From: Myxococcota bacterium
GTDB lineage: Bacteria > Myxococcota_A > UBA9160 > UBA4427
Reading direction: 5' to 3'
DNA length: 64,000 nt
Assembly (NCBI GenBank): GCA_041389445.1
Contig: JAWKRW010000002.1
Location: 501,359 to 565,358, forward strand
Below, in pieces: positions 45,770-49,151 of the stretch. Within the stretch, counting starts at the first letter, position 1. Each line of letters starts with the position of its first letter. The notes under the pieces were generated by a model. That model searched no databases, was not told where the DNA came from, and worked only from the letters and a program-made list of their open reading frames with translations. The position numbers and the translations under genes are program-made.

Positions 45770-46225
45770 TCAGCGCCCGGCCGAGCTGCAGATGTCCCGC
45801 TCGGTCGGCTCGGGCTCGTCCCGGACACCGGGGATCCGCGCGATGGGCAGGTTCCGCGCCATCTCCGCCATGCCCTTCGTGCATTCGCGCAGCTTCTGGA
45901 CGGTCGGATCCGCGCGCATCTCCCGCGCGACCGCGAGGGCGCGCGCGAGCGCCTCGTCTCGCTTCCCGGCCTCACAGAGGCGTTCGATCTCCTGGGAGGC
46001 CGTTCGGCCGCGCTGCTCGAGCGCGTCGAGCTTCGCGCGATCGATCTCCTTCATGCAGGTCTGGGCCGCCTGGGCTTCCGCTGCCATGCGCTGCATCGCG
46101 GCGGGATCCTGGAGCCGCCGCATCATCTCGGCCTGGTCGGCGCTGCCCGGCTGTTGGGCGGACGCGACGACCGGGGTCGCCATCAGGGCCAGGACCACGT
46201 TCACCAGGATCGCTCGTCGCTTCAT
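45770..46225 (-). CDS. Small secreted helical protein (151 aa, 4 Cys), function unknown
   Basis: A GAGAGGAG Shine-Dalgarno is present. A signal peptide is present (MKRRAILVNVVLALMATPVVASAQQ). The mature part is rich in A/E/R/M/Q and helical in character. It is divergent from the encapsulin operon. Confidence 0.7.
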   Translation of the reverse strand: MKRRAILVNVVLALMATPVVASAQQPGSADQAEMMRRLQDPAAMQRMAAEAQAAQTCMKEIDRAKLDALEQRGRTASQEIERLCEAGKRDEALARALAVAREMRADPTVQKLRECTKGMAEMARNLPIARIPGVRDEPEPTERDICSSAGR

Positions 46226-46629
46226 CGGATCACTCCTCTCCCGCGCATCCAGCGCATTTCTGTCGCACGGTCGTCGGGTCGCCGTCGCTCCGTCGTGCTG
46301 TCGCCCGGGCTCGTTCGCGCCCGATCGCGTGGCGTGTCGGCCGATCTCTCCCGATGACGACGGGTCTCGAGCCGTGGCCTGCCCGATCGATCCCCGCTCG
46401 CCCGGCGCGATGGCCCCAGCCTAGCGCCTCACACCGCGCATTCGACCGTCCTCGCGACACGGCGAACGCGCGACACGACGGCGTGAGCGCACGACGAGTC
46501 CGCTTCGACACGGACCGCGGCCCGCCTCCTGGCCGCCGCCCTGGCATGGGCCTTGCGTGAGCAGGCCTGCGATGGCGTCTCGCCTGGCCGGGACCCCGAG
46601 CATTCGCGATGCGACGCGGCGAAGACGTC

Positions 46630-46647
46630 GATTCTACAAAAGGAATC
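46630..46647. promoter_or_regulatory. GATTC-N8-GAATC inverted repeat immediately upstream of the EncFtn ribosome-binding site (possible operator)
   Basis: The sequence gattctacaaaaggaatc at 46630-46647 is the only AT-rich patch in the 441-bp intergenic region. It ends 2 nt before the GGGAGGA Shine-Dalgarno. Confidence 0.2.
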
Positions 46648-46666
46648 CGGGAGGACGATTCGAACG

Positions 46667-47155
46667 ATGACGCGATCGGCGCTCCACGAGGCGGCGGAGG
46701 ACCTGCGCGACGAAACGCGCGAGATGCATCGAGCGATCGTCTCGTTGATCGAAGAGCTCGAAGCCATCGACTGGTATGCGCAACGCATCGACGCCACGAG
46801 GGATCCCTCGCTCCGCGACGTCCTCGCCCACAGTCTCGGCGAGGAGAAGGAGCACGCGAGCATGACCCTCGAATGGATCCGACGACGCGATCCCGAGTTC
46901 GACGCCCTGCTGCGCCGCCTCTTGTTTCAGGCGGACGGCTCGATCGTCCACGCCGAGGCGGACGCGCCGGATGCAGGCACACGCGCCGGGCGCGGGTCGG
47001 TCCCGGGCGCTTCGTCGACGACGACCGGCGATCGGGGACTCGGCATCGGGAGCCTGCGCGCGAACAACGAGGCGGGAGGCGGAGCGGACATGGCGGGGGA
47101 CACGGCCCGGAGCGATCCGGGCGGAAGCGAGCGGCAAAAGGAGGGTTCGGAGTGA
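46667..47155 (+). CDS. Encapsulated ferritin (EncFtn) cargo protein with extended C-terminus (162 aa)
   Basis: A GGGAGGA Shine-Dalgarno is present. The ferritin-like core is MHRAIVSLIEELEAIDWYAQRIDATRDPSLRDVLAHSLGEEKEHASMTLEWIRRRDP. An encapsulin targeting-peptide-like motif, GDRGLGIGSLR, is encoded at 47030-47059. The stop overlaps the shell gene's start (GTGA). Confidence 0.9.
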   Translation: MTRSALHEAAEDLRDETREMHRAIVSLIEELEAIDWYAQRIDATRDPSLRDVLAHSLGEEKEHASMTLEWIRRRDPEFDALLRRLLFQADGSIVHAEADAPDAGTRAGRGSVPGASSTTTGDRGLGIGSLRANNEAGGGADMAGDTARSDPGGSERQKEGSE

Positions 47156-47961
47156 GCGTGTGGAACCGGAGGCTCGCGCCGCTGAGCGATGCGGCCTGGA
47201 AGCGGATCGACGACGAGGCGCGCAGCGTGCTCGTGGTCCACCTCGCGGCGCGGCGTTTGTTCGACTTCGACGGACCCCACGGCTGGGCGTTCTCGGCGAT
47301 CGACCTCGGCTTCGTCGAGCCGCTCGAAACGAGCGAGGACGGCGCCTGGCTGCGCCGCCGCCAGGTCCGGCCGCTGGTCGAGCTGCGCGTGGAGTTCGAG
47401 CTCGAGCGCGAGGAGCTCGAGAACGTCGATCGCGGTGCCGGCGACGTCGACCTCGATCCGCTGCGCGACGCGGCGCGGCGCTTCGCGAGCATCGAGGACA
47501 CGGCCCTCTTCGAAGGCCATGCCGATTCGGGGATCCCCGGCCTCGTCACGGACGCGGCCAACGAAGGCGTCGCGCTCCCCGAGGATCCGCTGCGCTTCCC
47601 GAACGCCGTGACCGAGGCGATCGTGCAGCTGCGCGAGGCGGGCGTCTCGGGTCCGTACGTCGCCGCCCTCGGGCTGAGGGAGCACGCCGCGCTCGATCGG
47701 ACCACGACCCCGGCGGGCTTTCCGGTCCTGCGCCACGTCCAGCGCCTGCTCGACCTCCCGATCATCTGGGCGCCGGCGCTCCGGGGCGGAGTCGTCGCGA
47801 GCGCGCGCGGCGGCGACTTCCGGCTCGTCTGCGGTCGCGACGCGACGATCGGCTATCGGACCCACGACGATCGCAGCGTGAAGCTCTACCTCGAGGAGAG
47901 CTTCAGCGCCGAGCTGACCGGGCCCGAAGCCGTGGTCCCGCTGCTGCCCGCGATCTCCTAG
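47152..47961 (+). CDS. Family 1 encapsulin shell protein (linocin M18-like, HK97 fold), 269 aa
   Basis: An AAAGGAGGG Shine-Dalgarno lies 7 nt before the GTG at 47152. The N-terminus (V)SVWNRRLAPLSDAAWKRIDDEA matches the conserved encapsulin N-terminus. RQVRPLVELRVEF, DTALFEG, GPYVAALG and FRLVCGRDATIGY are characteristic of the family. Confidence 0.9.
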   Translation: MSVWNRRLAPLSDAAWKRIDDEARSVLVVHLAARRLFDFDGPHGWAFSAIDLGFVEPLETSEDGAWLRRRQVRPLVELRVEFELEREELENVDRGAGDVDLDPLRDAARRFASIEDTALFEGHADSGIPGLVTDAANEGVALPEDPLRFPNAVTEAIVQLREAGVSGPYVAALGLREHAALDRTTTPAGFPVLRHVQRLLDLPIIWAPALRGGVVASARGGDFRLVCGRDATIGYRTHDDRSVKLYLEESFSAELTGPEAVVPLLPAIS

Positions 47962-49151
47962 AGGGCGCGCGCGCGCCGCAGCGCCCCGATCTCGTCCCAG
48001 TCGAGTCCGAGCTCGAGCAGGACCTCCTCGGTATGCTGCCCGAGCTCGGGCGCGAACCGGCCCGGACGTGCCGGCGTGTCGCTGAATCGGATCGGGCAGC
48101 CGATCGTCGTCATCGGCCCGAGATCGGGATCCTCGAAGCGCTGCAGATAACCGTTCTCGAACACGCCCTCGTCCGCCAGGACCTCGAGATAGTCGCGCAC
48201 GGGCGCGCAACGCACGTCGACGTCGCGGAGACGCTTCATCCAGTCTGCCGTGCTGCGCGTTCGGGACGCCTCGGCGAGCGCGTCGAAGAGCGCGTGGCGC
48301 ACCTCGGGCGGATGGTAGGCCGAGGCGAAGCGCGGATCCCGAAGCAGCTCCGGCCGTCCGATCGTCTCGAAGAACGCCTCCCGCTGCTCGGGCACGACGC
48401 CGATGATGCCGACGTGTCCGTCGGCGGTCGGGAGGATCCCGTAGAGGCCGTGGATCAGGGGATGACCGCGATCGGTCTCGCCCGGCTCGCGGCCGGTCAG
48501 CAGGGTGTAGGTGTACTCGGAGGCCTGCGCGAAGATCACGGCGCCGATCAGCGAGACGTCGACGCGCTGCCCGCGACCCGTCCGATCCCGCGAATAGAGC
48601 GCCGCGAGGATGCCGCTCACCATGTTCTGCGAGGCGAGATGATCGGCGATCGTCGCACCGACGGGACGCAGATCGCTCGGTCCGGTCCGCCGGATCAGAC
48701 CGCCGGCCGCCTGCCCGGCGAGGTCGGCGCCGCGTTGCGCCGCGTCGGGACCGACCGGGCCGAAGGTGCTCCCGGTCGCGAAGACGAGACGCGGGTTGAG
48801 ACGCGCGAGCACGTCGTAGCCGAGCCCCCATGCCTCGAGCGTTCCGGGCACGAAGTTCGAGAGCAAGACGTCGGCTCCTTCGACGAGTCGGAGGAAGACC
48901 GCGCGCCCCGCCTCGACGCGCAGGTCGAGGGTGATGCCGCGCTTGCCGCGATTGCAGGCGATGAAGAAGGGCGAGCGCAGGTCGTCGGGCGAGAGCACCG
49001 TCCAGCGACCGAGGTCGCCCCGCTCCGGCAGCTCGATCTTGATCACGTCGGCGCCGAGATCCGCGAGGAGCTGCGCCGCCTGCGGCCCCTGCACGATCTG
49101 CCCGAGATCGAGCACGCGCAGCCCGTCGAGCGCCCCCCGACCTTCCGCCAT
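47958..49151 (-). CDS. Family III CoA-transferase (CaiB/BaiF type)
   Basis: A GGAGGGGGGA Shine-Dalgarno is present. Diagnostic strings are LDGLRVLDLGQIVQGPQAAQLLADLGADVIKIE, LLSNFVPG and a catalytic Asp region (VGATIADH). Confidence 0.9.
   Translation of the reverse strand: MAEGRGALDGLRVLDLGQIVQGPQAAQLLADLGADVIKIELPERGDLGRWTVLSPDDLRSPFFIACNRGKRGITLDLRVEAGRAVFLRLVEGADVLLSNFVPGTLEAWGLGYDVLARLNPRLVFATGSTFGPVGPDAAQRGADLAGQAAGGLIRRTGPSDLRPVGATIADHLASQNMVSGILAALYSRDRTGRGQRVDVSLIGAVIFAQASEYTYTLLTGREPGETDRGHPLIHGLYGILPTADGHVGIIGVVPEQREAFFETIGRPELLRDPRFASAYHPPEVRHALFDALAEASRTRSTADWMKRLRDVDVRCAPVRDYLEVLADEGVFENGYLQRFEDPDLGPMTTIGCPIRFSDTPARPGRFAPELGQHTEEVLLELGLDWDEIGALRRARAL

Follow-up and report, generated by a model that had tools for sequence, protein, structure and literature searches.

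The closest solved structure to the cargo protein described here is the H. ochraceum EncFtn (PDB 7oe2; E 3.7e-34), which is part of an encapsulin:EncFtn system (PDB 7oe2/7odw) that also comes from the Myxococcota and follows the same two-gene logic; the corresponding shell matches ours with E 3.5e-60. In that system the shell contains four EncFtn decamers (Ross et al. 2022, PMC8791618). The R. rubrum EncFtn (PDB 5da5; E 1.2e-27) belongs to the same fold family, and it has a GSLK-type localisation sequence comparable to the targeting peptide (TP) of the present cargo. This sequence is appended at the C-terminus, with no long tail described after it, and the ferroxidase ligands of this protein are Glu32, Glu62, His65 and Tyr39 (He et al. 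2016, PMC5012862). In the archaeal Flp-fusion encapsulins (e.g. Pyrococcus furiosus) EncFtn domain and shell are contiguous, as they are here, but these are single polypeptides without a TP, whereas at our locus the two ORFs occupy different frames, a TP is present and there is no slippery site. In reviews and primary papers the TP is located at the C-terminal end of cargo proteins.

We report on a two-gene operon within a 64-kb stretch of Myxococcota DNA (64,000 nucleotides, referred to as the window), in which the TP of the EncFtn cargo is followed by a long tail. The features of the two genes are as follows:

46667..47155, + strand, EncFtn cargo gene (162 aa; PF22277 and TIGR04535 matches)
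47027..47059, + strand, targeting peptide GDRGLGIGSLR, residues 121-131, which aligns with the shell-bound H. ochraceum peptide
47060..47137, + strand, variable part of the tail, ANNEAGGGADMAGDTARSDPGGSERQ, residues 132-157, predicted to be disordered and apparently without sequence constraint
47138..47144, + strand, AAGGAGG, Shine-Dalgarno (SD) sequence of the shell gene, 7 nt before the GTG and within the codons that end the tail (QKEGSE)
47152..47961, + strand, Family-1 encapsulin shell gene (269 aa, GTG start; Linocin_M18, encap_f1)

The cargo carries an EncFtn-like domain (PF22277, residues 6-88, E 3.8e-35 with Pfam) and scores 115.6 bits against the NCBIfam encapsulin-associated ferritin profile TIGR04535, slightly below its 125-bit cut-off. 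The TIGR04535 alignment stops at residue 130, the L of GSL, and everything beyond R131 therefore lies outside the usual C-terminus of the family. An identical 162-aa protein, from an 808-kb contig of a Myxococcota metagenome-assembled genome, is annotated as ferritin in NCBI. The shell protein matches Linocin_M18 (PF04454, residues 1-251, E 4.8e-80 with Pfam) and the encap_f1 equivalog NF041155 (NCBIfam, 272 bits with a cut-off of 100). Its best PDB matches, ~265-280 aa long and with E-values down to 8.8e-72, include those of K. pneumoniae, M. tuberculosis (Cfp29), H. ochraceum and T. maritima, and since known T = 1 shells are among them a T = 1 architecture is suggested. Inspection of the sequence shows that cargo stop and shell start overlap by 4 nt, GTGA at 47152-47155, and that the GTG at 47152 is the earliest start codon in the shell frame downstream of the TP region. 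We also find the hallmark of Family 1, i.e. a cargo gene that adjoins the shell gene and encodes an LGIGSL (GxLGIxxL-type) TP. Judged from these matches the operon is a standard two-gene Family-1 EncFtn encapsulin, a predicted iron-storage nanocompartment, in a high-GC Myxococcota genome (71% GC). The initial annotation, which rested on the letters of the sequence and had described a Family-1 operon with an EncFtn cargo, a 269-aa shell and a GTGA overlap, is borne out in these respects by the profile matches on both ORFs and by the sequence and its translation.

Cargo residues E30, E60, H63 and Y37 correspond to E32, E62, H65 and Y39 of the R. rubrum protein (residue-number offset from the PDB alignment, ligand identities from PMC5012862) and are invariant across 112 homologs. 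With all ferroxidase ligands invariant the cargo looks functional. The helical domain spans approximately residues 6-88 and is followed by a disordered linker (residues 96-120); a disordered linker between the helical domain and the TP is also present in the H. ochraceum cargo. Using a 112-sequence alignment, AlphaFold2 predicts helices at residues 15-43, 47-74 and 76-86 (pLDDT ~97-98) and no secondary structure past residue 86. The linker, the TP and the tail have pLDDT values of ~48-68, and the variable part of the tail ~48-61.

The TP that had been annotated is present, at residues 121-131, except that its coding sequence starts at 47027 and not at 47030, a difference of 3 nt. L125, G128, S129 and L130 are invariant or nearly so among the 112 homologs, and residues 123-131 align with 117-GSLGIGSLR-125, the shell-bound segment in H. 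ochraceum. Translation of 46667-47155 agrees with the reading of an internal TP with 31 residues after it, ANNEAGGGADMAGDTARSDPGGSERQKEGSE (residues 132-162, encoded by 47060-47152). The tail is 31 aa long if counted after the TP (R131) and 32 aa if counted after GSL. The H. ochraceum cargo (131 aa) ends 6 residues past the TP arginine, whereas the window cargo adds 31. The location of the TP thus departs from the Family-1 norm of a TP at the cargo terminus, a norm that is descriptive and not a proven requirement, given natural tails of 2-37 aa; a literature search on internal TPs found nothing relevant. The tail is net acidic, with seven D/E vs three K/R and a net charge of about -4. It is neither a second TP nor a known domain, with no Pfam or NCBIfam match past residue 130. 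Tandem Repeats Finder (TRF) and a direct-repeat search found no tandem or direct repeats in the tail, and tandem duplication was rejected as its source.

The expectation that cargos finish a few residues past the TP holds for the family as a whole. Among 42 EncFtn+shell operons, from genomes and metagenome contigs with both a TP and an adjoining shell gene, the post-GSL tail has a median length of 5 aa (IQR 5-7) and a maximum of 32 aa, the latter being the window. In the best 120 of 6,773 homologs this length ranges from 2 to 32 aa; the window is again the longest, followed by its closest relatives with 25, 21 and 11 aa. A pool of 137 TP-bearing proteins, cluster representatives at 50% identity among them, has a median of 6 aa, with at least 15 aa in nine proteins and at least 20 aa in six. 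Fitch parsimony on a neighbour-joining tree of the 137 proteins gives ~7 independent gains of tails of at least 15 aa. The nearest neighbours of the long-tail proteins mostly have short tails, which argues for independent expansions, and the compositions of the long tails are unrelated. Specifically, the metagenomic cargos P0122 (37 aa, 13 contigs), P0174 (31 aa) and P0073 (20 aa) combine, like the window, an EncFtn domain, an LGIGSL TP and a long tail, and each of their genes is located directly upstream of a Linocin_M18 shell gene. Neither the sequences nor the compositions of these tails are related. Tail length is not correlated with GC content (Spearman rho 0.08). A long post-TP tail is hence rare (roughly 5% of the cargos) yet recurrent, and the window is the extreme of a continuum.

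The history of the tail was followed in the closest relatives, L001/L002, L003 and L004/L005, which come from samples and assemblers separate from one another. Compared with the full-length window protein L001/L002 and L003 are 69-79% identical and L004 65%. A scan of metagenome contigs for closer relatives gave none with >60% identity over a full-length match, so that four lineages underlie the clade analysis. The tail lengthens stepwise within the clade, with 11 aa in L004, 21 aa in L001/L002, 25 aa in L003 and 32 aa in the window, and the tails of the relatives extend to the shell start or to within at most 18 nt of it. Rather than ending right after GSLR, the relatives thus keep tails of 11-25 aa. 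When the DNA of the window is aligned with that of L002, L003 and L004, all indels between TP and shell start prove to be multiples of three; in-frame indels of 1-21 codons separate the window tail from those of the other three. After the TP all three frames of the window are open for more than 60 codons. With no stop near the TP in any frame, no single indel could generate a canonical short C-terminus. The suggestion that the true stop differs is consequently contradicted both by the layout shared among independent assemblies and by the open frames.

Relative to L003, the EncFtn domain is 0.90 identical at the nucleotide level, 0.89 at the amino-acid level and 0.79 at third positions. The corresponding values are 0.88, 1.00 and 0.64 for the TP, 0.61, 0.33 and 0.62 for the variable tail, and 0.90, 0.86 and 1.00 for the last seven codons. 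The variable tail accordingly diverges more rapidly than the synonymous sites of its gene. When aligned with its homologs the tail is not conserved except for its last six codons, and these are conserved at the DNA level, where they hold the shell SD and start codon. The block AAGGAGGGTTCGGAGTGAG, which contains the shell SD, does not vary between the window, L002 and L003, and in L003 it lies beyond the cargo stop: the window has CGG CAA AAG GAG at the position of CGA TGA AAG GAG in L003, such that the L003 stop corresponds to Gln157 here (CAA, 47135-47137). With the downstream block identical, QKEGSE is a translated ribosome binding site (RBS). The end of the tail is thus constrained as DNA and not as protein.

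This feature extends to the family. The overlap of cargo stop and shell start amounts to 4 nt in 21 of the 42 operons and to 1 nt in a further 11; it reads ATGA, GTGA or TGATG, and the short tails carry GGAG-type codons. The independent long tails likewise end in SD-like codons at or overlapping the shell start, as illustrated by L166, L169 and L170 (37, 31 and 20 aa), which finish in such codons beside it. A short tail that encodes an RBS is the norm in EncFtn operons, a point that the initial annotation had missed together with the RBS in the last six tail codons of the window, and the arrangement of cargo and shell suggests translational coupling. Because the cargo frame stops where the shell gene begins, the residues that follow the TP are largely the shell RBS read as protein, which explains both the look and the drift of cargo C-termini.

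Taken together, our data suggest that the tail is probably a tolerated, translated spacer between the TP and a coupled shell start. The cargo would dock to the shell interior by its LGIGSL TP, while the DNA between the TP and the SD/start would have expanded through in-frame, GC-rich, low-complexity insertions, and the upstream stop, still present in L003, would have been lost here through change to a Gln codon. From base composition we estimate that a stop-free run of 31 codons at 71% GC is found by chance in ~6 of 10 cases (~60%), so that nothing would end translation earlier; the ribosome would make a disordered peptide of 31 residues and then terminate at the shell start. Maintenance of the frame probably serves to keep termination at this position, since with the other frames open a frameshift would carry ribosomes through the shell start. 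The peptide would be without selection on its sequence and would hang in the lumen. Its tolerance may stem from the TP groove, which at its C-terminal end appears to open into the lumen, and by a rough estimate 40 extra tails of ~3 kDa each would take up a few percent of a T = 1 lumen. We infer coupling, neutrality and tolerance inside the shell from these comparisons, with tolerance of a 31-aa extension based on natural variation. Of the three options offered initially, i.e. that the tail is tolerated inside the shell, adds a function or reflects a different stop, the first fits best.

The tail is a curiosity and not a new system, an extreme value of a variable trait. Its biological weight seems small, given what reads as a textbook EncFtn encapsulin with a tail that behaves as unconstrained sequence. 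Since long-tail cargos with intact ferroxidase sites adjoin their cognate shells, natural operons imply that a Family-1 TP tolerates up to ~37 following residues. If true, designs would no longer be bound to a strictly terminal tag.

An alternative is that the tail is a functional module, for example an acidic, flexible bristle by which Fe2+ is attracted or mineral nucleated, or an entropic spacer through which the cargo is packed less densely or the ratio of cargo to shell is adjusted. Within the clade three diverged members retain long tails (at least 21 aa), and weak selection for length or disorder could account for this; long tails have arisen repeatedly in EncFtn operons, and the acidity of the window tail could matter in an iron-handling lumen. 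However, no residue, motif, length or charge is conserved (net charge about -2 in L003, about -1 in L002, and about 0 in P0122 as well as in the highly charged P0174), divergence goes beyond that of synonymous sites, and most members, the H. ochraceum cargo included, do with 4-8 residues. We therefore regard a functional module as unlikely. The earlier idea that the tail adds a function likewise finds no backing in a sequence that outpaces synonymous sites and differs in length and composition between lineages. A more specific version, quite unlikely in our view, holds that the tail is selected independently of its sequence as a disordered bristle tuning the number of decamers per shell or mineral nucleation, with lengths of 2-37 aa setting the loading of the different lineages; if true, Family-1 TPs would work as internal motifs.

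It is also conceivable, albeit very unlikely, that the tail DNA acts as RNA, as a spacer or structure that sets access to the shell RBS and thereby the cargo-to-shell translation ratio. The 3' end of the tail carries the shell SD and start and is conserved as DNA, and the overlap of stop and start is a rule of the family. Against this, the folding of the tail/junction is no more stable than that of shuffled sequences (z = 0.77 for the window, 0.11 for L002 and -0.29 for L003), the relatives have different predicted structures, Rfam gives no match even at E <= 1, and the variable 26 codons are not conserved. A role at the RNA level is supported only for the last ~20 nt of the tail DNA. Finally, that the tail is an artefact, due to an assembly indel, a miscalled stop or a programmed frameshift that fuses cargo to shell, is extremely improbable: the source is a metagenome-assembled genome and the shell frame is open over the whole tail, but the independent assemblies share the layout with all frames open, alternative frames are commonly open over long distances at 71% GC, and the lack of any X XXY YYZ slippery heptamer between TP and stop speaks against a programmed -1 frameshift fusion. 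The tolerated spacer is thus the reading that we retain.

Upstream of the operon three elements were considered:

46542..46556, + strand, putative sigma-54-type -24/-12 promoter TGGCATGGGCCTTGC (GG at 46543-46544, GC at 46555-46556)
46630..46647, + strand, dyad GATTC-TACAAAAG-GAATC, of which only the core TTCTACAAA (46632-46640) is conserved
46649..46655, + strand, SD-like GGGAGGA of the EncFtn gene, read from the sequence

The GATTC-N8-GAATC dyad, which had been proposed as a possible operator, is present, but its role as an operator does not hold up, as the arms are absent or altered in the closest relatives. These read GTTTCTACAAAG at this position followed by unrelated sequence; the left arm is GTTTC in L002 and L003 and the right arm is missing. 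Moreover, inverted repeats of 5 bp are at chance level in the intergenic region (10 vs 8.3 in shuffles), and RNA folding of 46600-46680 is no more stable than that of shuffles (z = +0.34). The dyad was therefore rejected as an operator. Its core TTCTACAAA is unique within the 64-kb window. As noted in the initial annotation, there is no Fur-box-like sequence in the promoter region: the best match to the 19-bp consensus is 10/19, which 36% of the shuffles equal. A consensus scan of 46200-48100 detected no sigma-70 promoter and no intrinsic terminator. At the SD/start of the EncFtn gene the block GGA(A/G)GGACG(A/G)TTCGA(A/G)CGATG is kept in L002 and L003.

A strongly conserved upstream element, CCCTGGCA..GCCTTGCGT, represents a putative sigma-54-type promoter, and the TGGCATGGGCCTTGC match is positioned ~110 nt upstream of the EncFtn ATG. 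It has the -24 GG and -12 GC with TGGCAC-N5-TTGC spacing, and TGGCAY-N5-TTGC has this one match in the 64-kb window vs 0.07 expected. Relatives L002 and L003 retain both elements, TGGCA and TTGC, at the same spacing within divergent flanks. No enhancer-binding protein with a GAFTGA-type signature is encoded in the window, and a literature search found no paper linking encapsulin to sigma-54 or RpoN. Of the shell-linked loci, 14 of 64 carry a looser form of the motif (background 0.012 per 300 nt) upstream of EncFtn, vs 0 of 102 stand-alone EncFtn-like loci. These 14 loci represent at least 10 independent lineages, with all the long-tail ones included. A clade of these operons may be under the control of sigma-54 and an enhancer-binding protein rather than Fur, and the conserved sigma-54-type promoter provides a lead on the regulation of some encapsulin operons.

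The EncFtn ATG is preceded, at a distance of about 110 nt, by a conserved sigma-54-type -24/-12 promoter element that occurs only once within the window. The sequence features in and around the operon discussed here are (window coordinates):

46453-46461 and 46469-46477, + strand: direct repeat CGCGACACG, two copies, spotted by eye only
46542-46556, + strand: sigma-54-type -24/-12 promoter TGGCATGGGCCTTGC
46632-46640, + strand: AT-rich block TTCTACAAA
46956-46993, + strand: imperfect 19-nt tandem direct repeat (79% identity) in the linker-coding region of the cargo gene
ORF end 47958, - strand: CoA-transferase-like gene, convergent with the shell gene

A sigma-54-type element is also present upstream of EncFtn in the close relatives L002, L003 and L004, in the loci of the long-tail cargos L166, L169 and L170, and in three further EncFtn loci (L006, L087 and L115). 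Most EncFtn-domain matches in genomes and metagenomes are ≈95-aa proteins lacking both a targeting peptide and an adjoining shell gene; these represent the known "s-FLP" class (cf. PDB 3k6c), which in this sample is commoner than encapsulin-linked EncFtn. The stand-alone set (L007-L085 and L094-L165) comprises about 100 loci, mainly from Gammaproteobacteria and Betaproteobacteria. A looser form of the sigma-54-type element was found in 14 of the 64 shell-linked EncFtn loci and in none of the stand-alone loci (0/102). Together, the conservation of the promoter, its uniqueness in the window and this distribution suggest that the encapsulin operons of this clade are under RpoN/enhancer-binding-protein control, and no report of such control was found in the literature searched.

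The two CGCGACACG copies, spaced 16 nt, precede the -24 element by roughly 65-90 nt and could constitute an enhancer-binding-protein site; CGACAC is partially conserved among the relatives. The block TTCTACAAA, present in one copy in this 71%-GC window and kept in L002 and L003, follows the putative sigma-54 promoter and precedes the EncFtn RBS, and would thus fall in the 5' leader. The linker-coding repeat is probably due to chance since its period is not a multiple of three.

In the relative with 79% identity, L003 (region 704-724), the substitution responsible for the earlier cargo stop gives rise to an ATG as well (CGATGA). The gene caller picked this ATG as the shell start (MKGGFGVSVW...); the true start there may be either this ATG or the conserved GTG.

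Downstream, the shell stop TAG (47959-47961, + strand) overlaps the stop of the CoA-transferase-like gene within CTAG (47958-47961), with no terminator-like hairpin between the two genes. CoA_transf_3 and CBS-domain genes also adjoin the EncFtn operon in L004, in an orientation different from that in the window.
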